Shown: one piece after another, positions 457 to 64,000 of the stretch | Numbering within the stretch: the stretch's first letter is position 1 | How the letters are laid out: every line of letters starts with the position of its first letter | From: an uncultured virus (IMG/VR IMGVR_UViG_3300001682_000284) | Taxonomy: Duplodnaviria; Heunggongvirae; Uroviricota; Caudoviricetes | DNA length: 64,000 nt | IMG/VR virus record: IMGVR_UViG_3300001682_000284 | Reading direction: 5' to 3' (one strand) | Made by a program: the position numbers and the translations under genes | Notes under the pieces: generated by a model | Told to the model about the DNA's origin: nothing | The model's input: the letters and a program-made list of their open reading frames with translations, nothing else | Database searches by the model: none

Positions 457-532
457 TGGTAGCACGGGCGAGACTCGAACTCGCATAGGCCAGTTCCCAA
501 AACTGGTGACTTAGCCATTAGTCAACCGCACT
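457..532 (-). tRNA. tRNA-Pro(UGG)
   Basis: Arm CCAGT-TTTGGGA-ACTGG, T-arm GCGAG-TTCGAGT-CTCGC, CCA end. Confidence 0.85.
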
Positions 533-1398
533 ATAAATTTATCAATCTTCTATTTCATTAACAGTTTACCATTCTAACTGTTAATTTCATTCCATTCTAT
601 TCTATATACTTCATATTTCTTTGATAGCAAGTCATCTCTTCGTTTATCATGTTCTACTCTATCTGGGTACTTATGTTGCTTACCATCGATCTATAAATCA
701 ATATTATATTTGGGTAAGTAAAAATCCAAGAAGAAGCAACTATTCAAAGACTAATCCAACTATCTTTGCAAAACCTTGTAGTTGTGAATATATTCTATTC
801 CGTTATTATCAAGAACCTTCATGAAGAATTTCTATGGGTAACTAATAATCTTCCGACTAGACCATCCTTTATGATTACCAGTTTGAACTCTTTTCTTAAC
901 AGTGATCGATATACGTTCTCGTATAGCAACATCCCTTCCATTCTATATGAGTCTTTGTGATAAACACTATTTCGAGCAGGTTATATTCCTCTTATGGTAA
1001 AACAATTTTCCACAAATAACACATTGTTTATAGTAGTTAATATTACCATCTTGTTTAAGAGTCTTTGCAATCTTATTCTTAGTCTATTCACTATGTATTC
1101 TACTATTCGCACATGCTCTAGAACAAAACCTCCCAGTTCCAATGTATTCCAAAATAGGGTTACCACATTTCTAACAAAGTTTTCCCTTAATAGAATACAT
1201 CTTTTTCTAAGACTAACAATGTGGACATTTAGTTCTGCTTAATTCTATTACTCTAACAATTTTAGAATAGTTATGTTTTTGACAAATAAACTAAACTTTA
1301 GTATTTCGGTTTTTCTAAACATTGTATCTTGCTTGGCATTGCTTAGAACAAAATTGCTAGTTTTTGGTTGTCTTGCCACAATATTTGCATTGATTCAT
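511..1398 (-). CDS. Zn-finger plus Vsr/DUF559-like (EDxHD-type) homing endonuclease, TAG-recoded
   Basis: Several CxxC/FCSxxC motifs, then SYP*KFF...LDFY...IDL*IDGKQH...HDKRRD; open from ATG 1398 to TAA 511 only if TAG is sense. Confidence 0.8.
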
Positions 1399-1723
1399 AT
1401 TTTAATCTCCTTACAATTATAATTACTGTCGGGAAATAAAAATCGAACCTTTATTTTCACTCTATATACTTAGCCAATTAGGCCACTACTTGAAAAACTA
1501 TAAAGTGGAACGCCTGCCAGATGCAATGATTGGTGTGAAAACCTCGAGGACTTTACGTGCTATCGGCTTATGTTAACGTAGTCAGTGACCCACCGACTAA
1601 ACGATACTTGAAAACTATTCTACCTTATCACCAATCTTCGGGAATAGTTTTCCCACTTTATAATTTTTCAAACAGTATAGCAACCTTTATTTTTTCACGC
1701 TATATTGTATATATAAATTAAAT

Positions 1724-1918
1724 TTACAAACTATTTAATATTTCAACCAAACTGTCAACAGATATAACTCTTATATCGTTAGTCCCGGTATCTCCAGTAT
1801 AAGGATCTTCCCAAATTTGATTCGCAATTTCTATCATATATTCTATATCCAATTTAGAATCATACAAAACAGGACGTTTATAAGTATCACTTATAATTAT
1901 GCAAAATCTTTTATCCAT
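1724..1918 (-). CDS. Hypothetical protein
   Basis: ORF with GAGG RBS. Confidence 0.6.
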   Translation of the reverse strand: MDKRFCIIISDTYKRPVLYDSKLDIEYMIEIANQIWEDPYTGDTGTNDIRVISVDSLVEILNSL

Positions 1919-1935
1919 AATAACCTCACTTTATT

Positions 1936-2009
1936 TGGCAGGGGCAACAGGATTTGAACCCACTCTAATAGATTTGGAGTTCATCGTGCTACCGTTACAC
2001 CATACCACT
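1936..2009 (-). tRNA. tRNA-Trp(CCA), several stem mismatches
   Basis: TGGTGTAACGGTAGCACG D-arm, CTCCAAA loop, GGTTCAAATCC, CCA end. Confidence 0.7.
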
Positions 2010-2055
2010 TTAATTATATTATAACGCAATTTTAAAAAAGTTATATTTTAATCTA

Positions 2056-2172
2056 TGAGGGAAGTGGGATTCGAACACCATGAAACAGAGTTTTACTTAG
2101 AGTAAATTGCTGTTAACATTCACAACAAAAACATTATGCATATCCTGCCTTGGACCACTTGGCTATTCCCTC
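2056..2172 (-). tRNA. tRNA-like gene (Leu/Ser-type D-arm) whose anticodon region is replaced by an insertion carrying an ACAGC motif
   Basis: Acceptor GAGGGAA/TTCCCTC, D-arm TAGCCAAGTGGTCCAAGGC, T-loop GTTCGAATC, about 70 nt between the D- and T-arms. Confidence 0.5.
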
Positions 2173-2185
2173 AATATAAATTACA

Positions 2186-3971: not shown

Positions 3972-4047
3972 GTGACGACAGCGGGACTCAAACCCACACT
4001 CTTTGCATTGAAAGTGCAATGACTTAGTCTGTTAGTCGATGCCGTCA
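3972..4047 (-). tRNA. tRNA-Glu(UUC)
   Basis: Arm TTGCA-CTTTCAA-TGCAA; acceptor GACGGCA/TGTCGTC. Confidence 0.8.
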
Positions 4048-9350: not shown

Positions 9351-9836
9351 TCACAATTTCTACCACTTTTTCTAATACCATATCCATGTGCCACGCAGGA
9401 ATATACCATTCTTGTCTACTGGCATCTTTGATAGCTATTGTGCTGGACCAACTAGTAGATTAATACTATTACCAAATATATTAGCAATATCCATTGCGTT
9501 ATCTATATTATATTCATTGAACCAATGATAGTGCTTCATATAATATGATAGATCAAAATCAGGATATGTATTAGTGAGATATCGTAGCATGCGTATGGTG
9601 AACTGTCCACGACCTGCACATAGATCGATATTATATTTATTTGGTAATGGTGGACATAACTATATCATATGATCTACTATTTGCAATGGGGTGAATACCT
9701 ATCCCATCTATTTCTTATTCTTAGTATTAATAGCAAATGGTGTATGCTATAGTATTGGAAATATAGTCATATCTATATCTGGTGATAGTCCAGTATATTT
9801 CTTGAATCTAGTCTATAGTTCGGATAGTGGTTTCAT
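9351..9836 (-). CDS. Small N6-adenine-methyltransferase-like SAM-binding protein (TAG-recoded)
   Basis: MG*VFTPLQIVDHMI (GEVFTP motif) and IDLCAGRGQF (motif I); no NPPY seen. Confidence 0.7.
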
Positions 9837-12800
9837 AGTGGTTTGTGCCCACCATAAGTGGTTTGTGCCCACCATAAGTAACTTTTTCATTAATTAGATA
9901 TCGTTCTTTCTGTTCTGGATCAAAATATTTGGCATATCTTTCTGCATCTTCTGGATAATAGTCTGGTATCCAATTGATAGCCCACCGTAATTCTTCATCA
10001 GTTAATCCTAATTCTTTTGCTACCATTTCGTCTGTCCATTCGTGAGTATATGTTGGCATGTACGGGACTGAAGATAATATTACGTTCTTATTAACTTTAT
10101 ATATTGATAAAGAAAATCTCATTAGCTTCAAATATAAATATTTAAAAAATGATAATTGTTCATTTGGTGTTTTAAACAAGAAATTGTTGTTCTTTTTATA
10201 TCTATCTGTAAGATGACTGCTTGGATTCTTAAGTTGGATAAATGTAAAAAAATCCCGTTCTTTTGTATTCCCTATAATGGAAGCAAATCCAACATTATAT
10301 GTTGCATCGTCTTTAATATCCACATGCATAGCTAGATTACTTTTAGTGCAATAATGTAGTACTTTATTTAAAATTGATTTATATATATCAGTATTACCAT
10401 GTTGGTCTATGGTGGATATATCAATTGGATTTCCACAGTTTTTATCAAATATATTTATAAATATATCATTTGGTGTGCCAGCAATATTAAACAATTTATT
10501 TGCGTTAATAACAGACTCATATCGACAAAGATCATTTGAAATTAATCCCTTTACTGTTTCCCCAATTGTCTTAGTCTTTTTTTCATTTTTTGATAATAAC
10601 CATCCTGCAGGATGAATAAAACACATTCTACCATCATCTGATACCAGTGGATATACTTCCTTTATAATCTTAAGATCTAGATTATTAGGATTATACGGTG
10701 GGTTACTTATCATGTAGTCAAATTTCATATCTTTATATTCCTTATGTAATTTCAATGCATCTTTTTGACACAGATTACATTTATAATTATTCTTATTCAG
10801 TAATATATTAGCCATATTAACTCTTATTCTATCAATATCATAGCCAAATAATATATTTTCGAGTATATATTTTTCTCTTTCTATATCATCTTCTATATAT
10901 GATTTCAGACCAATCATATATTGCTCTTTGGCATATAGCAGAAAGCTACCAGTACCCATACAAGGATCAATTATGGTCTTATGAGGATTGGTGAAATCTA
11001 CATCTAGCAATTCAAACATCCTCTTGATAATGACTAAGGGAGTCTTGCAATATGCACCCTTCATATTAAGATTCTTCCGTACGAACTCATCATATGATTC
11101 ACTAGTAATATTTGATTCAAAATAATCAAGAGCGTCAGCAAAATTTAATATAGTACGATTAATATCAACAATATCTACAAATTCTTTGGCAAACCAATAT
11201 TTGAAATCCTCTAATGAAACTCCTGTGATATCTCTGAATAGTTCATCTTCAGGAGTATTCATTATATCATCAACAGTTTTCTCATTATTCGGTGTTATAA
11301 ACAAAAACTCTGGCAATTTAGATATTGCTGTTCTTATCTTCTTAATGGTCTCCATTAATGATTTCTTATCTATATCTTTATCTGCACTATACTCAGGCAT
11401 CATACCATCATTGACTTTTGTATTGGACATGGTCTTGCCTTTATTAGTATCATTACTATTGACATCTACATAATCACTCTTCTGTGCACTCTTAACCTTT
11501 GATACACTATTTATTATCTTATCATCAATATATTTCGGATTAAGCGGGATCGAATAAAACCTTTCAGAGAATTTTCCATGCTCTCTGAAATTATTAATGA
11601 CATCAGATATATTGATCTCATTCCAACTATTATCCGTATAGTCTAGTATTGGTGCATAGTTCAGATACTCTCTAATACTATCGCTAATATTACTATTGAT
11701 ATCTTTATTAGTTCTTTCGCATATATCATATACCATAGATAGACATCTCTCAGGATTGAAATCGAATACATGGCAGTATTGTTTATTAATACTCACATTT
11801 GGTGATTGAGCTCGGAATATTGCCTGAGTGTACTCTTCCAAGGATTGTCCACTATCCAGCATGAATACACCATTCCACTCAGGAATAGTCACTCCCTCTT
11901 TGAATCTCTGGCAAGTGAGTGTAATAGTCCCTCTATTGTTGGATTTGGCTCGATTAATCATATTCTTAACATCATCTATTTGAGTGATCTCATTTCCTGT
12001 TGCTATAATAATCTCATATCCTGAATACTCAGACATAGTCTTCATCAAATTAGCGAGAGCAATGATTCCTTTAGTATTCTTTGGTAATACCCATAGAGTA
12101 TGATCGAGTCCTGATACTAATCTATATGGTGATAATGAGTTGTGTCCATATCGTCCTGCTATTGATTTTAGTAATAGTTCTGCAGATCCTTTGTATAGTA
12201 AATCATGGTTGCTATCGTCATACGCAATAATCTTATCTAATGTCAATCCCTCAGCATCCGTATAGTATTGTTGGGACAGCTTAGCATCATTAGATATTCT
12301 TATAATATGAGTTTTCATCGTAGGCATAGATATATGTGCACCATGACCAATTTTCAACTCTTTTTCTTTTTCTCTTTGCTCATCTATATATGTCCATGAG
12401 TATATTTGATCATCATCAAATCGTCCTCTAGCTATATCCTTATAGGCGGTGCCTGATACATATATAGTCTTTTCATGAGGAATAGTATTCAATAGATCTC
12501 TGAATGATATAGTATCACCACCATAATGATACTCATCTGCGATGATTGCATCAAATGTAATATTCCGAGATAATAGATTTGTCAGATTTTTCTGAAATTT
12601 CTTCACAACATCATCTAAATTGCCATTTTCGGATTTGTTCATCATCAATTGAGCACTCGAAAGGAATATATTGCATTTGGTGTCGCTAATATGGTTTATC
12701 TCTCTGTTTGTCTTATAATCGATGATCTGGAAATTCTCAAAAGCTACGTGATCATTGATATCATCTTTTAGCGAATCAAACACATAAGGTTTATATGTCA

Positions 12801-13431
12801 ATACTAATACATTTTTCCATTGCAATGATTTAGCCACATTCAATATAGTAAAATTCTTACCAAATCTCATCTTTGCGGCCAATAGAAATTCATCATACCC
12901 AAATTTGAATGCGTCAATAATTTTATCATGTGCAATCTTTTGTTCATCTCTCATTGGATATGAGTGGATTCTCGATACTCCATATAGTATAGTATTAATT
13001 CTTTTAATAATAGTTTCAAGATTGGTATTAGTAAAGAACTCCGTACTACGTATATTATCTAGAGCTTTATCATTACGATATGCTCCATCTTTTAGTACTA
13101 TATCTGAATGGAGTATATGTTCAATGTCATATGCTGATTTATATTTAGATTGTGATTTTATATATTCAGTGAGGTCTATTGCATATAGTATTAGTGCTTG
13201 TGTATTATGAGTGCCAAGATATCCATCAATAGTAGAAACAGGATTAGTACCTTCACTAGCATTTGTTCCATATTGACCAATCTTATATTCTATACCATCA
13301 TAATTAGTTGGCTCTTTGCTATTCTTAATGGGTGTCCAGATATATAGACCCTCTCCATTGATATCAAAGTTAAATGATTTATGCAATTGCTCTGTAACAA
13401 ATATTCCACGACCTTTTGTCGGATATATCAT
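9808..13431 (-). CDS. Fused SF2 helicase/ATPase and N6-adenine DNA methyltransferase (type IIG/ISP-like restriction-modification protein); no internal TAG
   Basis: AKMRFGKN (Walker A-like), DEYHYG, SGT, QAIFRAQSP; DPCMGTGSF and SNPPY; ends in TAG at 9808 (read-through would extend it 27 codons to a TAA). Confidence 0.85.
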   Translation of the reverse strand: MIYPTKGRGIFVTEQLHKSFNFDINGEGLYIWTPIKNSKEPTNYDGIEYKIGQYGTNASEGTNPVSTIDGYLGTHNTQALILYAIDLTEYIKSQSKYKSAYDIEHILHSDIVLKDGAYRNDKALDNIRSTEFFTNTNLETIIKRINTILYGVSRIHSYPMRDEQKIAHDKIIDAFKFGYDEFLLAAKMRFGKNFTILNVAKSLQWKNVLVLTYKPYVFDSLKDDINDHVAFENFQIIDYKTNREINHISDTKCNIFLSSAQLMMNKSENGNLDDVVKKFQKNLTNLLSRNITFDAIIADEYHYGGDTISFRDLLNTIPHEKTIYVSGTAYKDIARGRFDDDQIYSWTYIDEQREKEKELKIGHGAHISMPTMKTHIIRISNDAKLSQQYYTDAEGLTLDKIIAYDDSNHDLLYKGSAELLLKSIAGRYGHNSLSPYRLVSGLDHTLWVLPKNTKGIIALANLMKTMSEYSGYEIIIATGNEITQIDDVKNMINRAKSNNRGTITLTCQRFKEGVTIPEWNGVFMLDSGQSLEEYTQAIFRAQSPNVSINKQYCHVFDFNPERCLSMVYDICERTNKDINSNISDSIREYLNYAPILDYTDNSWNEINISDVINNFREHGKFSERFYSIPLNPKYIDDKIINSVSKVKSAQKSDYVDVNSNDTNKGKTMSNTKVNDGMMPEYSADKDIDKKSLMETIKKIRTAISKLPEFLFITPNNEKTVDDIMNTPEDELFRDITGVSLEDFKYWFAKEFVDIVDINRTILNFADALDYFESNITSESYDEFVRKNLNMKGAYCKTPLVIIKRMFELLDVDFTNPHKTIIDPCMGTGSFLLYAKEQYMIGLKSYIEDDIEREKYILENILFGYDIDRIRVNMANILLNKNNYKCNLCQKDALKLHKEYKDMKFDYMISNPPYNPNNLDLKIIKEVYPLVSDDGRMCFIHPAGWLLSKNEKKTKTIGETVKGLISNDLCRYESVINANKLFNIAGTPNDIFINIFDKNCGNPIDISTIDQHGNTDIYKSILNKVLHYCTKSNLAMHVDIKDDATYNVGFASIIGNTKERDFFTFIQLKNPSSHLTDRYKKNNNFLFKTPNEQLSFFKYLYLKLMRFSLSIYKVNKNVILSSVPYMPTYTHEWTDEMVAKELGLTDEELRWAINWIPDYYPEDAERYAKYFDPEQKERYLINEKVTYGGHKPLMVGTNHYETTIRTID

Positions 13432-13502
13432 AAGTAACTCCTTAGTATACTATTTAATACAATTATTATAACCAAAATTGAAAAATAGTTTTCAATAAAA
13501 TT

Positions 13503-13535
13503 AAAGCACCTTTGATGTGATCTCAGGTGCCTTTT
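13503..13535 (-). terminator. Intrinsic terminator after the DUF2828-like gene
   Basis: GCACCT...AGGTGC hairpin flanked by T/A runs. Confidence 0.55.
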
Positions 13536-13554
13536 GTTGAGGTTACAAACAAAT

Positions 13555-15025
13555 TTATTTAATATGAGAGTATCTTTCATTATTAGTTACCTCTCTCACA
13601 AGAGAAAGTAAATCTTCGTATCCTTTTTTCAATACAAAGTTAATTGCATTCTGAGATGCACCAGAAACAAGTAATACATCTTTATCGTTCATTTGTGCTG
13701 GCAAATTCTTTAATCGTCCATTGACGTTCCAAAAGACAACAGTGGGCATAGTATAACCAGCATTAGCATATTCAGATTTAATCATTTCTAATGCATTCTG
13801 ATTTGGGTTCTGTGCACACTGGTCAAATTCCATATCAGAAATGATTACTACATGAGTAGGCATTTCATTCTCTGGAACTCTGTTAGCGTTAGCTCTGTCA
13901 AGAATCATACGGAAGACAGCCTCAAGGTTGGTATTCATGCCCCAAGGAGCATTCATGGTATTCTTTACCTTTTCTACGATGTCAGCACCAGTGATCTTTT
14001 GGAACTCTGGGCGATCGCTGAAAGTGATAAAGTAGTTACGGAAAGTCTCGTTAGGATTGTTCTCTGCCATGAACAGACCGATACCAATAGACATACTAAT
14101 TGGGATGTTCTGGTTGAATGTCATAGAACCGCTGACGTCGATGATAGGAATAGCTCTGAAGTCCTTTGGTAGGTCATCAAGTTGCTGTAATCCCTTCCAC
14201 TGCTCGTTTAGGAGCTGACGATTGGTGTCATTCATAGTGAATCTTGTGATACCACTATTCATGATTTCCTTAACGATTTCGTATGGGAATAGTCTCTTTG
14301 CATGAAGCTTAGCCTCGCCAGCAACTACCTTCTCCACGAATGGCTTAAGGATGTTGTGACGATGGAATGCCTTCTTGTACTTCTTCATTGCGATAGAAGG
14401 CACATGCTCGAGATTGATTTTGTCCCATTCCTTAGCAGACATGTTCTGCTCAACTACGTTAGTTAAGCTAACAATCTGGTGACGGTATTCGCTGTAAGAG
14501 TTGATGAATCCGTTGGAACGCATGTATCTTACGACCTTACCGTATTGGGAATTCTTACGAGGCATCCACTTAGCAACAATACCCTGAAGAGTCTTGTTCT
14601 TCATTAATTCGAATAGGAAGGTAATTATTGCGTCAGCTGACTCTTTCTTGTCGTTCTGAACAAAGTGATTTGCTAGATAGACTAGGTCGTCAACACGGAC
14701 TATGTTCTGGGTGAAGTTCTGATATTGTAGAACACTTTCTAAAATATTCTTATCGAGCCATTGTGCTACGACTCTGAAGAATCTACGTTCTCCAAGTCCC
14801 TTCTCAATGTCGCGAGCCCAGAATAGGATACGTAATGCTGAAGTTGCATCCTTCTGATATGCCTCGTTGAACACAGTAATTATATCGTTATCGGACATGT
14901 TACGTGCAGCTCCGCATAGGAAAAATAAATCTACAATAGGGTTACCACTTGAAGAGTTAGTAGCCATACCATTTGCAGTACTGGTGTTGTTCCTTAGATT
15001 TGCTTGAATGANTGAATGAGTTCAT
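13555..15025 (-). CDS. DUF2828/TROVE(Ro60)-like protein with a C-terminal VWA domain; no in-frame TAG
   Basis: FWARDI..GLGERRFF, AKWMPRK, DVSGSM (MIDAS), ISDMEFD, VFWNV; true ATG probably 15025 after AGGAG, with the frame broken at the N at 15012. Confidence 0.85.
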
Positions 15026-15058
15026 AACTTTTTTCTCCTTTATTTAGTTATAAATTGA

Positions 15059-15714: not shown

Positions 15715-15791
15715 AGACTGAGTTAAAAATTAATGTATCTCACGTATTAATAATCGGCTTGTCAACGTCCTTTCATCCTATGAAATACATA

Positions 15792-48860: not shown

Positions 48861-48862
48861 TA

Positions 48863-51327: not shown

Positions 51328-51370
51328 TTATAATTGATATTAATTAATAGTAATTAGGAGCAAACATTGT

Positions 51371-52408
51371 ATGACATACAAGTAGAAGGTATTTAACGAA
51401 CACCCCTTATAGGAAGCATAGAAAATCTGGAAGAATTATCTATTAAGTATTTCACAATCTAAGTAGGGGTTTATCCATAGATATGGGAAATAGGAGGGGA
51501 TTAAACGATATGAAGTTTTTAAAGAAAAATCTATGCAAACTTAGAAAAATTTCATTAAAAGGTGGGGTGAGGAATAGGGAAGAAGGCGATGGCAAAATTG
51601 TATAAGGAAACGTAATGCAAAAAATCCTAGAAGATTAGAATATTGGTTAGATTGTAGCGATGGAGATTATTAGTTGGCTAAATAGAAATTATCTTAGTAT
51701 CAATCCCACTCAAAAGAATGGTTTATTGAACAATACGGAAAATAGTTGGGATTTAAAAAATATAATTCATGGAGCGTTAATCAAAAGAAGGCTATAACAC
51801 TTGCGCATTAGCAAAATCCAGAAATTGCAGAACGTACTTCGAAAACTTTGAAAATGATTAATAATAAATTAACTAGCTAGTAGAGAAAATAGTTATATAG
51901 TGTAAAACGTAATTACATCAAACAATATGGTTAGGCTTAGGGGTTGATAAGATTTTTTGATATTTACAAATGCAGAAACCATAGAGCTACAAAGTATTCT
52001 TTAATGGGTGTTGAATTTTGTGAATAGATTATTTTGTTATTAACTTCAGATATTAAATTTGATAGCATTAGGTATGGAGCATGTGAGAAATTTTTGTGTA
52101 ATGAATCTGGGAGATTGTATTTCTATGATTTATATTTTAGACTTGGAAGTACACAATTAATTGTTGAATTTAATGGCGATTTTTGGCATGCAAACCCATA
52201 GATTTACACAGAAAATTATATGCATCCCGTTTGTAAAAAAACAGCTAAAGAAATTTGGGAAGAGGATTGCCAAAAATTAGAATTAGCAAAGAAGAATAAT
52301 ATTGAGGTTTATGTGGTTTGGTAGAAGGATTTTATAAATCATAAATAGCGAACAATAGAAAACACAATTAAAATCATAAAGGACGTTTTTAATGGAAGAA
52401 TTGATTAA
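51371..52408 (+). CDS. Free-standing Vsr-like (EDxHD) homing endonuclease inside the fractured nrdJ
   Basis: F..RYG repeats, FYDLYF, IVEFNGDFWHANP, IWEED..K..LA, VW*KDF. Confidence 0.85.
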
Positions 52409-53717
52409 TATTGATAGTTCTCAATTTGAATAGAAAATTGTATCAAAGATTCAAATGTTAGAAGATTACACATATGACATATAGGTAGAAGACTAGCATC
52501 ACTATATTTTAGATAATGGAATAATAAGCCATAATTCAGCTATATTTGCAGGTCAGGTATCTAATGGTATTTAGCCTGTATTTATGAAGGAATACACTCG
52601 TTGGGTTACTATGACTGATTAGTAGGTTGAATAGTTGCAACATAGGCATCAAGACTATTAGATGGATAAATTTACAAGTGGTTATGAGTTATAGAACCAT
52701 ATTTATTAGAAAATTCCAAATCCTAAATTGGGATAGTGGTATTAGACAGCTATTTTCAAGTTTGCTGAAAGAGGTAACGAGCAAATTCTCAGGGGATAGG
52801 TAGATGGAGTAATCTATGAAATTGATAAAAATCGTGGATTAATCAAACCAATGTAGGTTATAGATTATGGTTGGAAATATGTTAAAGAAAACATTTAGAG
52901 TGAAAATTATGATTGGTGTGTAACCACAAACGAATTGACAGTTGAGGATCACATTAATATGCTTGCAACCTCAGCCAAATACATTAACCAGAATCAATCA
53001 AAGACTATTAACATAGTAGAAGACTATTCTTACTAGTAGTTTAAAAATGTCTATACTTCAGCTTGGAAAAAGAAGATAAAGGGTGTAACCTCTTATCGTG
53101 CTGGAACTATGACTGTTGTATTAGAATAGAAAAAGAAGTTATAGGAATAGCAGACTTAGTTGGAGAAGTTATTCAAGGGAAATAATGGGGACATAATATT
53201 CCAAGATGTTAAACTTCCTGAAAAGTCATATGCTCTACAATATAAGGTGAAGGACAAGTATAAGAAGAAATGGTATTTTACCATATCGTTTGCCGATAAA
53301 GAGTTAACCAAGCCTTTTGCTTTCTTCATTAGAACCAACAATAGATAGAGTAATGAAGTAGCAGATTTAGTAATACAGTCCATGTAGGAACTTCTCATAT
53401 CCTTGGGTATTAGAGAAGATTTAATTGCCGATCAGAGATAGAAATATAAAGATCAAACGAATGTAGATAAAATTGGAAGAGCAATAGGAATGGCATTAAG
53501 GCACAATATACCTATTGTAAAAATTGTAGAAACATTGAATACCCATAATGATGGATTATCGACATTAATGTTCCACGTAAAAAAGATTCTTTCTGGATTC
53601 ATTAAGGATGGAACGAAGGTGGCTGGGGGAAATTGTGAAATTTGTGGTAGTACTGAATTAGTTTACCAATCTGGATGTTCAACTTGTAATAATTGCGGGA
53701 GTTCAAAATGTCAATGA
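52392..53717 (+). CDS. nrdJ: C-intein (48 aa) plus class II RNR C-part with a TSCPD-like/Zn-ribbon tail
   Basis: YDI*VED*HHYILDNGIISHN|SAIFAGQVSNGI*PVF, SKTIN, KGVTSYRAG, CEICG...GC..C..CG.SKC. Confidence 0.9.
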
Positions 53718-54349
53718 AAGTTATTAAGAGAAAGTTTATGAGGGCTATTGAAGAATAGCCCCAAAAGGTGGTGTCTGCATCTAATTCTGTTGGGGTTTAG
53801 ATTAAGGATACTGAAAAGGTTAGAACCAATAACAATTAGATATGGTTATACGATGATATTTCCGACCAAAGTCTATATACACTTAAAACCTCAATATATT
53901 CCATAAATCAATTGTATGATCTAATAAAGCTACAATATGGTGGAATGTTAAAGTTTTAGCCAGTAATACATTTACATATAGCTAGCAATGGGGGATGTTG
54001 TTTTTCGGGACTACACATGTATGATATTATTAAACATAACAAGTACCCCATATACACTTATGTGGATGGATTTATAGCATCTGCTGCATCACTTCCATTT
54101 TTGGCTGGTGCTAAGAGATATATGAGTCCTAATGCGTTTATGATGATACATCAATTAAGTACTTGGTTTATTGGAACATTCTAGAATCTAAAAGATTAGT
54201 ACGAAAGCAGTGCTAAAGTAATGAATAAATTCAAATAGGTCTATAAATTCGAATTAAATATGGATGCAGATAAGTTGTAGGAATTGCTAAAAAGGGATAT
54301 ATGGCTTGATAGGTAGTAGGCAAATGCCTTAGGATTCATTAGAGAATGA
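53714..54349 (+). CDS. ClpP-like protease
   Basis: HIASNGG, VDGFIASAAS, MMIHQ, RDIWLD. Confidence 0.85.
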
Positions 54350-54418
54350 ACCAAAATAGCGTGAAGGTTTTTTAGTAAACCAGTTATAATAAAGACAAAG
54401 TTAAAAGGAGAAGTTGTA

Positions 54419-54700
54419 ATGAAAAAGTTTAAGTTTCCTGATTCAACAGTTTGGTTTCTTACTGAAGATGAATACAAAGTCTTTGTTCCGTTCGATATCG
54501 TGAAAGATTTTGAGAAATTTGCAGATAAAAATAAGTTTGCCATTAAAGAGTGTGGAGTATATAATTATACGAATAACAAAAAAAGAATTAACGACAGAAA
54601 TAAAGGAATATTAGCAGATGGCAAAGATTACATTGTTAAAAGAGAATCTAAAGATCTCATTGTATCTTGGTTAAAGTCTGCTTATAAGGAGATTAATTAA
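54419..54700 (+). CDS. Hypothetical protein
   Basis: ORF with RBS, coupled to the next gene. Confidence 0.65.
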   Translation: MKKFKFPDSTVWFLTEDEYKVFVPFDIVKDFEKFADKNKFAIKECGVYNYTNNKKRINDRNKGILADGKDYIVKRESKDLIVSWLKSAYKEIN

Positions 54701-55512
54701 TGGCACAAAAACTATTTGCTTCGCCAGCTATACAATCCATATTGAGAAAGTACAAACCCTTAACAAAGGAATAGGAAATTAAATATACAGAATAGTATAA
54801 AAAGACAAAATCCGATAAATCTGCAACCGCATTGTTAAATGGTGTTTCTCATCTATTTGCCAATAAGATTAACAAGAACTAGGGAGCATTTTTAAAGTAT
54901 GTTCCTGAAGCAACTTATGATGATATATTTAATGCCATGGTATTGCAATTTTTCAAGTTTATCCATGAGTTCAATCCTAAGAAGTCTAAGCTTAATACTT
55001 GGACTGAATATACCATTATGCCAGTTTACAAGGATCCACTAAGGCACATGGGAAATAAGTTTTCTGCAAAGCATAAAACAGTAGATATAGATAAACCCTT
55101 TGCTGGGACAGAAGATACTATAGCAGATATACTTCCAGATGGTAGCGTAGACATATAGGCATAGTGGGAAAGAGGCATTAAAAACCGTAAACTACAGAAC
55201 GCCATAAAAAAGTTAAACTCCCAAGATAGAGATATAATATTGAATCTGATGGGTTATGTTAAACCTCCAAAGAAAGAATGGTCTAAGGTTTTAAAGGATG
55301 GCACTGTTTCAATTAATGCCACCACCATTGCAAGAGGTCTTAACATATCCCCAGATAGAGTAAGAACTCGTGTTGCCAATATCCTCAAAAAACTTAGAAC
55401 GGAATTGGCGTAGAGTAAATTTGATAGATATTTCTAGTTGAACAGGTTAATAGAAAGGTATGATAATCCTAAACGAAAATATTCTAAATATGATATATTA
55501 AACAAGGAGTAA
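54700..55512 (+). CDS. Divergent sigma70-family RNA polymerase sigma factor
   Basis: PLTKE*E (region 1.2), DDIFN, FNPKKSKLNTW (region 2), IDKP...TIADILPD (region 3), IARGLNISPDRVR...LKKLR (region 4). Confidence 0.75.
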
Positions 55513-55516
55513 TGTT

Positions 55517-56236
55517 TTGAACAAGAATTAGTTAACAATATATGAATTATACAGAAAGTTATATAGCAAAATGAAAAATGAAGAATTTGTTATAGATAAA
55601 ACAGGTGCCAAGATGGTTTAGTTGATGCATTGCGCATTTGATTTAGATCCAACTTTGGGTGGTCATTTAAATATAGCAGATATTGCAATAACAAATGAGG
55701 ATTATGTTTAGAGAGAGATTAAGTGGTGCTTAAGCCAGAATTTAGATGTCAGTGAGTTAGTTCCTTATGCTAAGATTTGGAACGAGTGCAAGGGAAATGA
55801 TGATACGGTAAATTCAAATTATGGATGGTGCGTGTATTCCCCTGACAATCATAATCAATTTTAGAAGGCGTATCAAGCATTAGTAGAACAGAAGTAGACT
55901 AGACGTGGTATGTTAATTTATACCAGACCTACTATGCATGAAGATTATAAATAGAATGGAAAGAATGACTTTCTATGTACTCAATTTAATCAGTTCTTGA
56001 TAAGAAACAATAAATTGTAGATGTTCTATGTTATGCGTAGTAATGATGCAAGATATGGTCTATTTATCAATTTCCCATGGGCTTGTTATGTGTATGGGGA
56101 AATGTTGCAGAAACTTCAATTGACTTATCCTGAATTGGAATCAGGAATGATTCATTGGTATAGCACTAGTTTTCATTTGTATTAGAGGCATTTCAAGATG
56201 CTTAAGAAGATGTTTAAAGAATAGGAGAAGGCATGA
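55517..56236 (+). CDS. Thymidylate synthase-fold enzyme (dUMP methylase or hydroxymethylase)
   Basis: NSNYG, DFLCT, MRSNDARYGLFIN (Asn at the dUMP-specificity position), SFHLY*RHF; TTG start after AGGAG. Confidence 0.85.
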
Positions 56237-56742
56237 ATTTTAGTTTAACACGATAGACAAAGAGTCCCAGCAGAGGTCATAAAGAAGATGCGGGAATAGA
56301 TATTTATGTACCAAAACTTACTGATGAATATTGTAAAGATTTCCATTCAATGAATCTAAATTCTTAGTACACATTAGACAGACCACACAATAGAATTATA
56401 ATTAATCCTCATAGTAGAATAAAGCTTCCTACTGGGGTGTATTTCAATATACCAGAAAATAATATGCTTTTGGTGCTAGAAAAGACGAGTGTTCCAAATA
56501 AAACTGGAATTATTAGTGGTGCTAGGGTGATCGATGAAAATTATCAAGGTGAATTTATTGCCTCATTAATTAATACGTCTGATAATGAAGCAATTTTGCA
56601 ATAGGGACAAAAGTTTATACAATTAGTTTTAACTCCCATTCATTAGGATAGAGAATTACAACAAATTAATTTTGAATAGCTATTTACGAATAAACAAACA
56701 ACTCGTGGTAGTGGTGCATTTGGTTCAACAGGATTACATTAA
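56233..56742 (+). CDS. dut: Trimeric dUTPase
   Basis: DAGIDI, PTG, VIDENYQGE, FIQL, RGSGAFGSTG. Confidence 0.9.
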
Positions 56743-56755
56743 GGAGATTATATAA

Positions 56756-56968
56756 ATGAAGATAAGATTAACCCCAATTAAACCAATTTAGGAAGTAAAG
56801 GTCAAAAAAGATTAGAAGAAAGATAAAGCTTAGGTTCTTGAAAAATAGATAATATAGCCAGAAAGAGAAATTTAGACAATTGAAATTCCTAAAGAATAGA
56901 AAATATAGAAAAAAATTGAATAGCCAAAACCTAAAAAAAGGTCTTATAATAAGAAGACTACAGAATAA
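56756..56968 (+). CDS. Small Lys/Glu/Pro-rich protein
   Basis: AGGAG RBS; many TAG codons interspersed with GAA. Confidence 0.55.
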
Positions 56969-56991
56969 TCAAACCCACCAAAGGAGATAAA

Positions 56992-59955
56992 GTGGAAGTT
57001 TCAAGGATAACAAGGTTAAGGAATAACGGACAAGATTACATTAGAGTCTTCGGTTACAATTAGAACGGAGAACCAATTAAGCAACTAAAGGATTTCAAAA
57101 ATTACATATTTATATAGAAAAAGTACCTAAAGGACATTAAGTACACCGTAAGGGTGTAGGATTAGCTATATAAATCATACGACCACAATATTACCTCAAA
57201 ATACCTTAAGAAGGTCATATTAACAGGGTCTAAGACCTTCATGGTTTCAAAGAAATTGCAGGATATAGCATATCAATCAGATATTACTCCTGAAACAAAA
57301 TATATGTTGGATAATAACTTGTAGTTTTCAAGAAAAAGACATATAGCATTCTTTGACATTGAAACTTTCTATGATATAGAAAATGACCCAGAAGGAAATA
57401 GCGTAGATAACGCAGATTCCCCAATCACATCAATATGTTTCTATTCTAACTTTTTAAGTAGATACTTTGTATTAGCGTGGCATCCTGATCAGGATACTGG
57501 TGACGATCCATTTATAATCAAAGAATTAGGAAAGGATAAAGACCTTTATCTGTGTAAGAATGAAGCAGTTGTATTGGATACATTTTGTTACCTTATTAAG
57601 GAATTAAATGTTGATATTATAACTGGTTGGTATTCTCACGGATATGACGTACCTTACATCATGAAGAGATTAGTTAAGTTATTTGGCACTGCCGACAAAC
57701 TTTCTCCCGTTGGAAATACTTGGTTAGGAAATAAGGGAGTATATGATGGTTACTTTAAGATAAAGATTAGAGGATTAGACAGTATTGACCTCATGTAGGT
57801 CGTTCAATCGCTTAATTACAATCTCCAAAATAATAAACTCGATACTGCTGCAGCATAGATCTTAGGTGGTAAATACAGAAAGTTGAAAACTTCCAGTTGG
57901 AGAGACTGGCAGGACAACTTTAATGGGTTTATCAAGTATGCTATCCGAGATGTCGAGATTTTGTATTTAATTGATAAAAAACTAAAGGTGTTTGAATATC
58001 TCATTCAGATGCAAATTCTTTCAGGTATTAATAGTTTAAATGATATTATGTCCGTAACTAGACTAATTGATGCTATGTTTATTAAGAAGTTTTGGAATAA
58101 ATTAGTGTTCCCAGACAACAAAGAGTCTAAGAGAGTTAGCTTTAAGGGTGGGTTAACAATAGATCCCACATCCCCTGGTGTTCATGAAGGTGTAGCGGTA
58201 TTGGACTATGCGTCTCTTTATCCTACCACGATTATGGCTTATAACATTAGTCCTTAGACATTTCTGTTTTCTAAGGAACAATTAGGGTAGGAACAATTCC
58301 AAAAGGAACTTCAATTCTTGAAGGATAATGATATATCCTTTGTAGATACTGGAGAAAGCTAGGAATTGTTTGGTGGAAGATACATATTCTTATCCCATAA
58401 GGAACACATTGGTTGTCTACCTTCATTATCGTATGAATTGTATACAATGAGAAAGCAATTCAAGAAGATAGCTAAAAACGGAGCTACAGCTGACGAGAGA
58501 TTGGTTGCGGATAAAAAGCAATACGCTATTAAGATCATATTAAACTCTATCTATGGAGCTATGGGATTCCCATTCTTTAGATTGTTCGTTCCAGAATGCG
58601 CAGATGCTGTAACATTCTTTGGGAGAAAGGCACTTAGATTTGCAATGGACAAGATGAGTCCTTGCGGATTAGTATTATATGGAGATACGGATTCGGTTAC
58701 ATAGGATTCAATGATTAGATATAGAATAAGAGATAATATGATAAAAAGTTGCGAGATAAAGGGTTTGTTTGATATGATGGCAAAAGATGTGTTTATTACT
58801 AAAGATAATAGATATATAGGTAGTTTACCAGATATTGAATTATAGTATTATGATGAAAAAACTGGATAGGTTAGATGGGGCTAGGTTGATTTTATTTAGA
58901 AACATTTTGTAGATAAACCTACATTTTAGATAAGTTTTGAGAATGGCAGTTTTGTGGCGGTTACTGAAGATCATTCTTTGGTTGTTAAAAGAAATGAAAA
59001 TGTTGTTTAGACTAAGGTTTATTAGTTGCAATAGAATGATCAATTTTATACTTTAAATGGATGGACTAAAATGAATAAAATAACCCCCCAAGAACGATAT
59101 GCTAGGTGGGTTTATGATATCCAAATGAAGGATAACCCTCATACATTTTTTGCTAATGGGGTGTTAGTCCATAACAGCGTATTCATTAAGTTGAAAGTGG
59201 ACGAGAACACCCTCAAGGAACAGTTGGAATAGTTCAATAAGGAAGTATTACCAGACCAGTTGATTAAGAGATTTAATCCTTGCATTGATCTAAAGTATCT
59301 TCAATATGAATTGGAGCATGAAAAGAACCTTTCATATTTATACTTGGGAGATAGAAAGAAACGGTATTATTCAATTCAACAAGACGGAAGCAAGTATATT
59401 CATGGGTTAAACATCATAAAGAAAGACACTCCCGCATATATAAAACAATTACTTGACCAACTTTGTGAACGAGCGGTAACAGGCAAGTTTTCGGTCAGCG
59501 ATTTGGAATAGGTTTACAATAAAATTAAGACAGCGGAGTTGGACGAAATAGCCGTTCACAAATCCATAACAAAGAGATTTGAAAAGTACAACAAAACTAT
59601 TCCACAGCATGTATCGGGAGCATTATTTGCTAATGAGCATTTGGGTGTGAAGATTAAGCATAGCGATGTCGTTTACTTGTTCTACATTAATAGCTTTTGC
59701 GAACCAGAAATTAAACCTGGTGATCGTAAGAATGTGGTATGCCTAAGAAAGGAAGATTTCCCATTAATAGCTACTACTGATAAATTTTAGATAGATTATA
59801 ATGAGTTGATGGAGAAACAATTTATTCAACCATTAAGAGAATTTAATAAGATACCTCAAGTACAGAAGGCAATAGATGATTGGGGTAAGTTATTTAATGA
59901 CAATTACAGAATGAACAATAAAGGTTAGTTTGTATTTAAAAAGAGAAAGTTCTAA
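56992..59955 (+). CDS. polB: Family B DNA polymerase with a mini-intein
   Basis: FDIET, GWYSHGYDVPY, DYASLYPT, NISP*T, KIILNSIYG, YGDTD, KKRY. Confidence 0.95.
58693..59175 (+). mobile_element. Mini-intein at the PolB YGDTD|S site (161 aa)
   Basis: YGDTD|SVT*DSMI...VTEDHSL...VYDIQM...FFANGVLVHN|SVF. Confidence 0.9.
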
Positions 59956-60142
59956 ATTAGGAGAATACACGCTTGAAACTAGAAAAACATTAGGAAAAAT
60001 AGCTTTCACTATGCTTTAGAATGGTGTAGGATTTGCAGTATAAACAGTCTAGAGAAGGTCTAAATTAGCAATAGAAAAAGGATTTACAACATTACAGTCA
60101 GAGAAAGAGAGATTTATTAATTAAAATGGACAAGGAATAGGA

Positions 60143-61729
60143 ATGAACGAGTGGAGTAAGTATTTCCCCAAGAAATACAAACCTAGATAGTTGCAGATAT
60201 AGGCTATATAGTTTGTAAGGGATACATTTTTTGTCAAGAATAAGAAGTTTGCTATATTGTAGTCTCCCGTAGGTTCGGGGAAATCCTTTATAGCATCAAC
60301 TATAGCTAACTATGTAAACTCATTATATGAGTTCAATAGGAGCTATATATTAACAACCCAGATAATTCTACAAAATCAATACAAGAAAGAGTTCGAATAG
60401 TTCGCCAATGTTAGCTCAAAGGCAAACTATTATTGTAGTATGTTCAAAGATTCAACATGTGGAGACATGAAATGGCTCCATTAGTATGGTGGAGTACCCA
60501 CATGTAAGAATTGCGTCTTCGAACGAGAAAAACAGAATTTCCTCAACAATAAGGTGTCCATAACCAATACCGCATTCTTTATGACTAATCTTCAATACAA
60601 TGAAGACCTAATAAAGGACAGGGAATTTTTAGCTATTGATGAAGCCCACAATTTAGAATAGTAGATTATCAAGTATAAATCTATATAGATAGATTGTGCA
60701 ACTTTAGTTAAAGAATATGCGTTTAATGAATCTTATTGGGTTAAGGAAAGAGAAGATGTATTTAAGTGGTTAATATAGACATTATATTACTGGCTGCAAG
60801 AGAAAGCTACAACTTTGAAGTCTTTCATAGAGAACAATAATAAGGGGTTAAATCTCTCCCGTTCCAAGGTGATTGATGTTAGTAAGAAGTATGATTTCCT
60901 AGATAAACTTTTATGTCAATTAGATAGATCTATAGACGTATTTGATCCTAACAGATGGGTAGTTTAGAATGATACTGAAAATAAAGTTATAAAGATCACT
61001 CCTTTATTTGCTTATGATTTCGCTCAGAGCATGGTATTCAAAAAGGCAAATAAAGTGTTGTTAATGAGTGGTACCATATTGAATAAATTTGATTATTGCA
61101 AGAACTTAGGGATTCCAATCGACGATTGTTAGTTCCTGAGTTTGGATAGCCCATTTCCCGTTGAAAATAGAAGAATATTCCTGTTGGATTCGGGATCTAT
61201 GTCTAAAAAGAATATATAGAAAACTATGCCTAATCTAATTAGGGACATCAAGAAGATTTTAGAATTACACAAACATTAGAAGGGCATAATACACGTGTCT
61301 TCACATCATATCGCCAATTTAATATTTGATGCTTTACAAAACTCTCGATTAGCCATATCCAGTGAGTTTAATAATAGAGACGAAATGTTGTAGTATCATT
61401 CAGATAACGATAATAGCGTATTAATTTCTCCATCGATGATGGAAGGGGTTGATCTAAAATAGGACTTAAGTAGATTCCAAATTATAGCTAAGGTTCCATT
61501 CCCCAATCTAGGAAACAAGTATATCTCGACTAAGAAGGATTTGGTAAATCATTGGTATTAGTATCAAACGGCTAAGGCGATAGTGCAAGCATATGGTAGG
61601 AGCATAAGATCCTAGTAGGACTACGCAGTAACATATATTTTGGATAGCGATTTTGGTTGGTATTATAAGCAAAACAAATAGTTGTTCCCTAAATATTTTA
61701 AACAAGCAATTTCATACGGCAAGTTATAA
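60143..61729 (+). CDS. DinG/XPD-like SF2 helicase with Fe-S cysteines
   Basis: IL*SPVGSGKS, LQNQY, NYYC...C...C, IDEAHN, MSGT, SPF, EGVD, KVPFP, QAYGRSIRS. Confidence 0.9.
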
Positions 61730-61755
61730 TAAAAGAAATCGACAAGGAGTATATT

Positions 61756-62220
61756 ATGCCAAGAGGAAGACCAAAAAAATAGGTGCAGTAGGTTGTATTC
61801 GAAATGAAACAATCTCAAGAAATTTAGAATTTAATCAAAGAAATGATTGAAGAAAACAATATTGATACGGGAACAGCAAAACTTTGCGGATTAATGGTAA
61901 CTCCATGCATTAACAAGACTACTGCTGGAAGATGTATTAAAGCGGGAAAGGAATTGAAGTTCTTTTCTGATTACGACTATATTATCTAGATATCACAAGA
62001 ATATTGGGATAATTTAACAGACTAGGCTAGAAAGATCTTAGTTTTACACGAAGTAATGCATATCGATATCCGCTATACTAAATAGGGTAAAGAGGTATTT
62101 GGAATGAGGCAACATGATGTGGAAGATTTTGCAGTGTTGCTTGAAAAGTATGGATTGCACTGGTTAAGAGAAGTTAAACTAGTTTAGGAGCATTTGAAGG
62201 ACAAAGCATAGGACGAATAA
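61756..62220 (+). CDS. Putative phage metallopeptidase
   Basis: HEVMH, RQHDVEDF...KYG. Confidence 0.8.
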
Positions 62221-62222
62221 TT

Positions 62223-62408
62223 ATGGAGCAGATGACGTATTATTGGGTTTGCCCAAGATGTAAGAAACAATATGAAACACCGCAGCCAATACCAATAATT
62301 AGCAATCATTACATTTGTCCAGAATGTTATTATAAGTATGGCAATTCTTAGGTGAATTAGTGTGCTCCCGTTATAACTAATGAAAGGAAGGAAAGATTAT
62401 GGGATTGA
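62223..62408 (+). CDS. Small Zn-ribbon protein
   Basis: CPRC...CPEC. Confidence 0.55.
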
Positions 62409-62890
62409 AAGGTTTAGTTGACAAGGAAACAATAATAGAACGCAGTAATAGTTATGGAAATAACTTTCCATATCTTGTTGAGATTTGGAAAAACTTTTTG
62501 AAGCAGAGATATGATATGGATGTTCCTTTAACGCCAGGCGATGTGGCATTTATGTTTGCATTGCATAAGATTAGTAGATTAGCTAATAATCCTGGCGATG
62601 AAGATACATTAAGAGACATGATCAATTATGCTTGGTTGGGAATAGATTATGATGATTATGTTGAATAGCTTAAATCTGCCAGCAATAACAATGATATTGT
62701 TGATAATTTAATAGCTGAAATTAAGGAATTATAGTCTCCAAAAGAATAGGATTAGCAACTTTATTGTTTCTGGTATAAGAGAGATTGTATTTATGACGAG
62801 AATGCCGATTGGGGATCAGTAACAAAATGCCCAATGGGGTATTAGACATGGAACGATTGCGATTTTAATTCTCCTATTGAAATAAATTGA
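62399..62890 (+). CDS. DUF6378-like protein (extended through TAG)
   Basis: ER..SYG..F...W......DVA.M..L.KISR.....D...D.INYA. Confidence 0.7.
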
Positions 62891-62891
62891 T

Positions 62892-63770
62892 ATGTTGTCT
62901 GATTACATAGAAAAGGTTAGTTATTCTAATATTAGCACTTTTTTGCAATGTCAAAGAAAGTGGAAGTTAACTTATATTGATAAATTAGATAAGAAATAGG
63001 ATTCTGCAGATACCATTTATGGCACTGTAATCCATGAAGCTATTCAGAAGTTTTTGCACTATTACTATTCAAACACTTTAACGACTTTACAAGCCAATAA
63101 ATAGAAGTTATTAGAGTAGTATTCGATCTTTATAATGAAGGGTTTAGAATAGGGATTTATCAAGAAGTTGAATTTATCATATTAGATTACTGAACAGTAT
63201 TTGGGTTATGGAATGGAACTTATTAAATAGTTTATACCGAATGTTAATAAATGGTTTCCAAAATCAGGAATGGAACTGTAGGGGACAGAAATTTAGTTGA
63301 ATGTCAATGAGCCTAATTGGAAAGTTAGATTTAACGGCTATATTGACATATTATTGCATGACAAGAAGAATGATAGATATAAGATTATAGATTTGAAAAC
63401 TTCTAGAACCAGTTGGAACGACAACCAAAAAAATGATTAGGTAAAAAGATTGCAATTGTTGCTTTATAAGATCTTTTTATCGCAATTAAAATCTATCCCC
63501 CTTTAGAATATAGATATAGAGTTCTTGATTCTAAAGAAGATAGTATTTTAGGGTCAATACAAGGTTAGTAGAATTCAAAAATATTAGCCACCTCACGGTA
63601 AGGCGACAATAAACAAAGCTGTTAAGTTATTCAATGAAACTTTGAAAGAAATGGAAATTTTATGCGAAAGTAAATTGTAGGGAGAAATGAATCCCACTAA
63701 TTATTGCAATTGGTGTTCATTCTATAAGGAGAAACAGTTATGTAGTAGAAAAAGAACCATCAAAAAATAA
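62892..63770 (+). CDS. PD-(D/E)xK RecB/Cas4-like exonuclease
   Basis: SYS.I..F..C.RKW, GTVIHE, GYID, IIDLKTS, QLLLY, CNWCSF....C. Confidence 0.88.
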
Positions 63771-64000
63771 AGTATTTCAATATACTAATAACAGGCGATA
63801 ACAACTATAATAATTTATCTAAATTCAACATCCTAATGACATAGATTAGTCAAGAAATAGAACAAGTTAAGTGTATTGGAACTTTTGGTGGAAAGTATGG
63901 AGCTTAGGTTCTAGCACAATTATTTGCCTAGCAATAGGGCATCAAGTTTAAAGAGTTTAGTACGTCAATGTTTAAGAACGTAAAAAGACCCGAAGGTCAA
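63740..64000 (+). CDS. SLOG/YspA-like protein, partial
   Basis: ILITGD, GGKYGA*VLAQLFA*Q*GI; begins ATG TAG TAG. Confidence 0.55.

Follow-up and report, generated by a model that had tools for sequence, protein, structure and literature searches.

The stretch of 64,000 nucleotides analysed here, referred to below as the window, comes from an uncultured virus of the Caudoviricetes (IMG/VR record IMGVR_UViG_3300001682_000284) and raises the question of what the codon TAG means in a phage whose genes are full of it, and of how a cell would be made to read it. The evidence described below points to glutamate as very probably the residue put at TAG and, with somewhat less assurance, to a tRNA with the anticodon CUA, charged by the phage's own glutamyl-tRNA synthetase (GluRS), as the means.

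The window is phage DNA with a G+C content of 33%. When its open reading frames (ORFs) of at least 100 amino acids were listed, 25 were found under code 11 and 65 with TAG read through, the genes being tightly spaced in the latter case. From these 65 read-through ORFs a working set of 48 non-overlapping ones was chosen, overlapping shadow ORFs being discarded. In this set 525 in-frame TAGs were counted, spread over 40 ORFs in which they make up 1.9-6.2% of the codons, and the remaining eight ORFs were free of TAG. The terminators of the 48 ORFs were TAA in 26 cases, TGA in 21 and TAG in one. The earlier note on this DNA, made from the sequence alone, had described genes filled with in-frame TAG that end in TAA or TGA, and had proposed comparing the coding capacity under both readings; the counts agree with its description, the rise from 25 to 65 ORFs goes the same way, and the eight coordinates of its list that were checked (58255, 52572, 41786, 41792, 56183, 48459, 32274 and 691) all proved to be in-frame TAGs. 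The computation thus shows TAG to be a sense codon in the window phage. ORF coverage was also tried as a measure of recoding, and was dropped as meaningless on GC-rich control loci.

The meaning of TAG was assayed with a test similar to Codetta, in which the phage proteins, with X at each TAG, were aligned by tblastn to homologues (X being scored alike against every residue) and the log-odds of the 20 amino acids were summed for each codon type over columns with at least eight homologues; the homologues came from 202 loci in a sample of Bacillota genomes. For TAG, 75 columns were available, with glutamate at -14.4, lysine at -100.6, aspartate at -105.8, alanine at -113.3 and glutamine at -118.5, in such a way that glutamine ranked fifth, 104 nats below glutamate. 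Glutamate came first in 1992 of 2000 bootstrap resamples of the columns, and its margin over glutamine was always at least 8.5 nats. As a control, 47 sense codons had ten or more columns, and the standard meaning was recovered for 44 of these, the three misses being Ile/Val, Tyr/Phe and Val/Ile. For the critical pair, CAA and CAG were decoded as glutamine and GAA and GAG as glutamate, in agreement with the claim of the earlier note that conserved glutamines are encoded by CAA/CAG. Profile decoding had also been put forward there as the check on TAG, and it returned glutamate as the best residue, a clear preference and no dominance of glutamine.

The conserved columns followed the same pattern. 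Conservation of at least 80% was seen in 17 TAG columns, of which ten were Glu, four Asp and one each Gly, Pro and Lys, with none being Gln. The majority residues at TAG (Glu 21, Asp 7, Gln 1) resembled those at GAA/GAG (Glu 29, Asp 6, Gln 1), unlike those at CAA/CAG (Gln 12, Glu 8). For GroEL, compared with 149 representative GroELs from a library of 1.8 billion proteins, the scores were 25.8 for Glu, 3.0 for Gln and 2.0 for Asp. In these comparisons with homologous sequences, glutamate is thus shown by computation to be the best-fitting residue at TAG.

These data bear directly on a reading of TAG as glutamine (code 15), which is the meaning in the published recoded phages as far as the accessible texts describe them, and which would come about either through amidation of a Glu-tRNA by the host GatCAB or through direct charging by GlnRS. 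Against it stand the 104 nats over the 75 columns and the lack of any conserved TAG column with Gln. The amino acid content points the same way: the TAG-free genes contain 6.3% Glu and 2.5% Gln, and the TAG genes contain 3.5% TAG, 5.1% Glu and 3.0% Gln, so that TAG as Gln would lift the Gln content to 6.6% as compared to the 2.5% of the TAG-free genes.

Individual conserved sites were examined in several proteins, the first two of which are located as follows.

GroEL, with 23 TAGs: 47241..48860, plus strand (profile columns, homologue alignment).

RecA with an intein, with 27 TAGs: 41330..42631, plus strand (profile columns, Pfam).

In GroEL, the TAGs at 48390, 48405 and 48459 align with Glu in 30 of 30 bacterial GroELs, the last of them being a site for which the earlier note had claimed Glu. 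In RecA, the TAG at 41873 falls on a column that is Glu in 35 of 35 homologues; of the two RecA sites claimed in the earlier note as Glu, 41792 stood (Glu 35/35) and 41786 did not (Asp 35/35). The Glu assigned there to the GV*GD motif of an exonuclease was found at 45031 of the 5'-3' exonuclease (Glu 30/30), and that of NrdJ, at 52572, aligned with a Glu of the Thermotoga class II ribonucleotide reductase (RNR). For the family B DNA polymerase (PolB), the claim failed, 58255 being opposite Asp in the three best archaeal PolB chains. The motif assignments of the earlier note are, therefore, partly imprecise, at RecA 41786 and PolB 58255.

A second line of evidence was obtained from codon exchange. 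To find related contigs, a motif peculiar to the clade of the phage GluRS described below was used in a scan of metagenome contigs, which gave 28 loci, 25 of them encoding the enzyme, and the sense codons opposite TAG were counted wherever ORFs of the window aligned to these contigs. In high-scoring segment pairs (HSPs) of at least 70% identity, the TAGs of the window faced TAG 98 times, GAA 27, GAG 3, GAT 6, GTC 5, AAA 2, CAA 1 and AAT 1; by residue, their non-TAG partners were Glu 30, Asp 6, Val 5, Lys 2, Gln 1 and Asn 1. In the opposite direction, the TAGs of the relatives faced Glu 14, Asp 8, Gln 4 and Lys 4 in the window. In HSPs of 40-70% identity, the counts were Glu 57, Lys 14 and Gln 6 for window TAGs against the relatives, and Glu 80, Thr 15 and Gln 14 for TAGs of the relatives against the window. 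Pooled, the non-TAG partners of TAG amounted to 181 pairs with GAA/GAG versus 25 with CAA/CAG, again at odds with a glutamine meaning. This measure is independent of distant homology, and it carries the putative glutamate meaning to the relatives, for which it is the sole basis because their ORFs were without homologues in the bacterial set. The central claim of the earlier note, that TAG stands for glutamate and not for glutamine, is thus supported by both the profile columns and the codon exchange, with glutamate well ahead in each.

Several results weigh against this assignment. The profile test reached just 75 of the 525 TAGs (14%), with homologues that all come from a sample of one phylum. 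The six ClpP columns lean slightly to Gln (3.7, vs. -1.3 for Glu), as a glutamine meaning would have it; in the second RNR ORF (nine columns) Thr, Gln and Lys lie within 3 nats, and dUTPase supplies three columns with no clear call. At certain conserved TAG columns the residue is Asp, Lys, Gly or Pro, RecA 41786 and PolB 58255 both fall on Asp columns, and the composition test is weak (Spearman -0.24, p 0.09, for GAA+GAG vs. TAG fraction). From part of these data it could be argued that TAG is ambiguous, being read as glutamate in most cases but to a substantial extent as another residue or as a stop, to yield statistical proteins or to throttle expression: 30 of the 75 TAG columns have no majority residue, several of the conserved ones are residues other than Glu, and the ORF at 9808-13431 ends in TAG under code 11. 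However, the GAA/GAG columns spread alike (Glu 29, Asp 6 and no majority residue in 34 of 85), so the spread at TAG is taken as ordinary divergence, and at catalytic positions, RecA 41792 for one, a mixture of residues would not be tolerated. An ambiguous TAG is regarded as highly unlikely, and glutamate as very probably the meaning of TAG in the window phage.

The question of how glutamate would reach TAG leads to the tRNA genes, of which the window has eight according to ARAGORN. Two of them are relevant here.

tRNA with anticodon CUA (amber suppressor) and a tRNA-Glu-like body: 15792..15868, minus strand (ARAGORN, BLAST).

Second phage tRNA, called as tRNA-Glu(UUC), with an atypical D arm: 3972..4046, minus strand (ARAGORN; kept in the relative L099).

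The tRNA(CUA) is the only one of the eight with this anticodon. When it was searched by BLAST against 61 whole Bacillota genomes, the 22 matches, labelled for isotype by ARAGORN, were Glu in 16 cases, Trp in three, Gly and Lys in one each and uncalled in one, with none being Gln. This genome-wide search was preferred over an isotype ranking by global alignment because the ranking used a library whose retrieval favoured tRNA-Glu. The D arm carries U11-A24 and U13·G22, which are described as tRNA-Glu identity elements in Escherichia coli (PMC9976931), and residue 47 is present. The computation thus shows that the tRNA(CUA) resembles tRNA-Glu in its sequence. As to the second tRNA, it is unlike any bacterial tRNA-Glu in the set, its best global score being 14 vs. 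32 for the tRNA(CUA).

The acceptor end of the tRNA(CUA) has G1·U72 as first pair, G73 as discriminator and an encoded CCA. The G1·U72 pair was found in all ten different tRNA(CUA) genes of the clade, as was the anticodon loop YUCUAAA, and compensatory changes were detected in 13 of the 20 stem pairs across these ten genes, the other acceptor pairs covarying. One related locus, L082, carries two different tRNA(CUA) genes, at 2546-2620 and 8321-8398. G1·U72 differs both from the G1-C72 of tRNA-Glu and from the U1-A72 on which the amidotransferase depends and which is also used by GlnRS (PMC9976931). The same source names the anticodon as the strongest determinant of GluRS identity; therefore, a host GluRS should handle CUA poorly, and the combination of CUA with G1·U72 should make this tRNA a poor substrate for the host GluRS, GlnRS and GatCAB. 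Glutamine at TAG might draw on the fact that Glu-tRNA(Gln) is a normal intermediate in bacteria without GlnRS (PMC9976931), but the tRNA carries G1·U72 and not the U1-A72 of both the amidotransferase and GlnRS, and, with the column, exchange and content data given above, we consider a glutamine meaning extremely improbable.

If TAG is read as glutamate, the enzyme that would charge the tRNA has a candidate on the same strand, about 1 kb upstream.

Glutamyl-tRNA synthetase, 452 amino acids, with zero in-frame TAG: 16812..18170, minus strand (Pfam, NCBIfam, AlphaFold/Foldseek).

The product of this gene matched the Pfam family PF00749 with an E value of 3e-85 and TIGR00464 (gltX_bact) with 363.2 bits, above the equivalog cut-off of 289.95; on the glnS model it scored 51.6 vs. 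a cut-off of 425.8, and on the GluQRS models it was also below the cut-off. The sequences HIGN (residues 24-27) and KLSKR (229-233), which we take to be the HIGH-type and KMSKS-type motifs of class I, show little or no variation in the clade alignment. The AlphaFold model reached a pLDDT of 90, and Foldseek matched it over its full length to the bacterial GluRS 3afh (TM 0.81). Sequence models and predicted structure thus show by computation that this enzyme is a GluRS.

The C-terminal part of the enzyme is the least ordinary. The fold of the helical anticodon-binding domain is kept, as judged from the full-length match to 3afh, although the anticodon-domain family PF19269 was not detected in the phage GluRS by Pfam, from which a strong divergence of the C-terminal sequence follows. 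In a search of 5.8 billion proteins, the enzyme fell into a distinct clade with 31 cluster representatives (P0001-P0031) at 42-98% identity, which cover at least 93% of the query, except for the 298-residue fragment P0015 (63%), and which all carry the catalytic Pfam domain only. Most ordinary bacterial GluRS align over the catalytic two-thirds alone and carry the usual anticodon-domain family; a few, at 38% identity, align over 85-97% of the length, and the clade profile aligns through the C-terminus of Helicobacter pylori GluRS1 (6b1p). It follows from these alignments that the anticodon domain is homologous yet much diverged.

The clade was met on metagenome contigs only. In IMG/VR, a scan with the single protein gave no match, and a scan with the alignment returned just ordinary GluRS with at most 44% identity, with the exception of a 67-residue fragment at 54%. 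A search of one genome each of 185,579 species gave at least 600 matches, and the best 80 of them included no clade member. In the phage GenBank collection no near relative of the window was found: megablast of 20 kb gave no match, and the best GroEL and GluRS had 43% and 44% identity, respectively.

The enzyme and the tRNA were then considered together. The computation shows that the GluRS clade and tRNA(CUA) occur together: twelve clade loci span 7 kb or more, of which 10 have a tRNA(CUA) and all 12 gained long ORFs on read-through of TAG, whereas the 67 IMG/VR loci of this size that encode an ordinary GluRS contained 50 tRNAs, none of them a tRNA(CUA). In three loci the tRNA is directly adjacent, about 47 bp from the GluRS gene. 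In the window, synthetase and suppressor tRNA are encoded together and the synthetase is free of the recoded stop; of the near-full-length clade GluRS genes, 13 of 14 have no stop codon of any kind inside, while their neighbours are rich in TAG.

Two small genes lie between GluRS and the tRNA.

Small ORF of 63 amino acids with one TAG, between GluRS and the HD gene: 16607..16798, minus strand (tblastn).

HD-domain metal-dependent phosphohydrolase with four TAGs, between GluRS and tRNA(CUA): 16010..16597, minus strand (Pfam, PHROG).

The 63-residue ORF was found by tblastn at the same position in 11 related loci and had no PHROG match. The HD protein matched the Pfam HD family (E 1.9e-4) and phrog_28876 (E 2.9e-32) and lies beside GluRS in 14 related loci. 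The order of GluRS, 63-codon ORF and HD protein is kept down to 47% GluRS identity, with the tRNA and a vWA 'RNA-binding protein' coming next in many cases.

These data allow a further explanation to be weighed, in which TAG is glutamate but the host GluRS charges the tRNA(CUA), and the phage GluRS is a general helper, for instance for the tRNA-Glu(UUC) that is also present in the window. Ordinary GluRS genes are indeed found on many phage contigs without recoding, and the available sequence of two clade loci out of the 12 shows no tRNA(CUA), which also counts against charging by the phage enzyme. Nevertheless, a helper role fits poorly with the contrast between 10 of 12 and 0 of 67 loci, with the direct adjacency in three of them and with the fact that no clade member appeared among those 80 best of at least 600 genome matches; moreover, since the anticodon is described as the main GluRS identity element (PMC9976931), the host enzyme is a poor candidate for CUA. 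Charging by the host GluRS is considered unlikely. Two more results sit on the same side of the balance as the two loci without the tRNA: the alignment to Thermus GluRS ends near residue 331, short of locating the residues that read the anticodon, and three loci with a 39%-identical GluRS have a tRNA(CUA) with a Trp-like body, the meaning of TAG there lying outside the profile test. These tRNAs (L074:6859-6934, L080:6831-6906 and L089:5560-5635) have a Trp-like D arm, yet the anticodon arm of the window type and G1·U72, and the three loci also hold normal tRNA-Gln(CUG) and tRNA-Gln(UUG).

Glutamate at TAG with charging by the phage's own enzyme is the explanation that we favour, and the layout of the window suggests how it could operate. 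Two regions are distinguished.

Mostly TAG-free gene block: 9808..20542, minus strand (ORF lists, TAG counts, Pfam and PHROG matches).

TAG-containing genes: 20599..63770, strand unspecified (ORF lists, Pfam, TAG counts).

The first contains a ResIII/N6-methylase, the vWA 'RNA-binding protein' (DUF2828/DUF7788), GluRS, the two small ORFs and an RlaP nucleotidyltransferase, and probably represents early genes readable in the host code. The second contains, by Pfam, genes for DNA hypermodification, a T4-type baseplate protein, tape measure, RecA, a 5'-3' exonuclease, DnaB, GroEL, a class II-like RNR, ClpP, a thymidylate-synthase-like enzyme, dUTPase, the family B DNA polymerase and a DinG-like helicase.

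In the proposed sequence of events, the host ribosome, for which TAG is still a stop, would make the products of the TAG-free block early, including a complete bacterial-type GluRS; a tRNA with a CUA anticodon and a tRNA-Glu-like body would be supplied from about 1 kb downstream of GluRS on the same strand; and the phage GluRS, with its much diverged anticodon-binding domain, would load this tRNA with glutamate. Glutamate would then be put at the 525 TAGs of the replication, chaperone, DNA-modification and virion genes, whose products would reach full length only at that point. The G1·U72 pair probably marks the tRNA as the substrate of the phage enzyme and would stop the conversion of Glu to Gln. 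The host should be able to express the pair because GluRS and tRNA sit in the TAG-free block. The charging by GluRS, the role of G1·U72 and the early/late timing are what we infer from these data, and the model as a whole, glutamate at TAG with a tRNA(CUA) charged by the phage's own GluRS, is considered likely. The wider view, that a clade of phages carries a self-contained orthogonal pair, a re-specified GluRS and a G1·U72-marked tRNA(CUA), with which the code of the cell is rewritten to TAG as glutamate, is one towards which we lean with more reserve.

Other features of the window were noted in passing. The ResIII helicase/N6-methylase ORF (9808-13431, minus strand, 1207 codons) is the sole ORF ending in TAG under code 11, and with TAG as glutamate it would extend by 27 codons (window 9727-13431), giving two forms, early and late. 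The GluRS module is flanked by two TAG-free, RNA-related genes, the vWA DUF2828/DUF7788 'RNA-binding protein' (phrog_850) at 13555-14967 on one side and, on the other, at 19535-20542, a nucleotidyltransferase of the RlaP type found in RNA-repair systems; both may serve tRNA repair or protection. No release-factor family was among the Pfam matches of the 48 ORFs of the 64-kb window.

The RNR is split over two ORFs (49084-53717), the first ending in a likely N-terminal intein part and the second opening with the C-terminal motif of an intein, and between them lies a free-standing endonuclease-like ORF (51371-52408) with 21 TAGs, an arrangement that resembles a 'fractured gene' whose intein is split. 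A complete intein is present in the first RNR ORF as well (Pfam, residues 207-330), and Pfam Intein_splicing matches were found in RecA (41330-42631) and in the family B DNA polymerase (56992-59955), one intein each. A thymidine hypermodification cluster (20599-25396, Pfam) encodes a 5-hydroxymethyldeoxyuridine (5-hmdU) DNA kinase, an amino-acid:DNA transferase and an amidoligase, together with two P-loop kinase-like ORFs and an amidotransferase-like ORF of the N-terminal-Cys kind, and the thymidylate-synthase-like enzyme (55517-56236) may make 5-hmdUMP. Finally, the 472-codon ORF at 5592-7010 has in its C-terminal half a long run of Trp/Gly-rich repeats (GTW..G.W) and matched no Pfam family.

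Among known systems, the phages of code 15 (Lak, crAss-like and the phAss-1 group) are alike in that their late and structural genes contain many TAGs, their early genes are free of TAG and a tRNA(CUA) is encoded (PMC8346664, PMC10607447, bioRxiv 10.1101/2021.08.26.457843), but in them, as these sources describe it, TAG is Gln and the host GlnRS is thought to be borrowed, whereas in the window Glu is the residue that fits TAG, and a Glu-like tRNA is accompanied by a GluRS gene of the phage. In the accessible part of the literature the phage TAG is taken as Gln: the Borges et al. preprint gives, in its available text, just TAG>Gln and TGA>Trp for phages whose code differs from that of the host; the phAss-1 paper, as far as its available text goes, reports no dedicated synthetase; code 15 was assumed in a 2026 survey of jumbo phages; in a 2025 preprint with E. 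coli extract, 28 of 29 phage tRNA(CUA) inserted Gln and one Ala; and in the Lak study certain TAGs aligned with Glu, the conclusion still being Gln. No report of TAG as Glu in phages was found in the searchable literature, subscription journals and supplementary tables lying outside this coverage, and within these bounds, subscription journals aside, the code is, as the earlier note had supposed, an undescribed one for a prokaryotic virus. The code change module of the Jade phages (TrpRS, RF1 and suppressor tRNA; Borges et al.) is described as similar in that a synthetase in the standard code and a suppressor tRNA switch on recoded genes, but it concerns TGA, Trp and another enzyme, and no release factor was among the Pfam matches of the window. 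The early/late logic of the model matches that proposed for other recoded phages in the same preprint, as far as its available text goes. Among phage stop-codon recodings, the window thus adds both a codon meaning and a kind of code-change module that are new.

According to the published view, phages exploit only the natural sloppiness of the host GlnRS and TrpRS; the window suggests that a phage, by means of an enzyme of its own, can give a codon a new meaning. The GluRS/tRNA(CUA) pair, having been selected to work in a foreign cell, is a candidate orthogonal pair for genetic-code expansion and, if the wider view is true, a ready-made amber-suppressor pair based on Glu that is ignored by the host GluRS, GlnRS and GatCAB. 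As regards annotation, table 15 (Gln) is what gene callers and databases apply to every TAG-recoded phage; in the lineage of the window this gives a wrong residue at about 3.5% of positions, catalytic glutamates included, and no NCBI table fits TAG as Glu with TAA and TGA as stops.

The nuclear code of peritrich ciliates (NCBI table 30) reads TAA and TAG as glutamate. UAG is also described as Glu in the nuclear code of Blastocrithidia (PMC12153298). These eukaryotic codes share the glutamate meaning of UAG, but in them UAA is also Glu and the genomes are cellular and nuclear, whereas in the window TAA ends 26 of the 48 ORFs and a virus would override the code of its host. With respect to the enzyme, the nearest likeness is to specialised bacterial GluRS paralogues (H. 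pylori GluRS2, non-discriminating GluRS), described as dedicated to one tRNA with a non-Glu anticodon, the 1-72 pair determining which enzyme acts on that tRNA (PMC9976931). According to the same source, however, GluRS2 serves tRNA-Gln, with U1-A72, on the way to glutamine, whereas the proposed target of the phage enzyme reads a stop codon, carries G1·U72 and would deliver glutamate as the final product.

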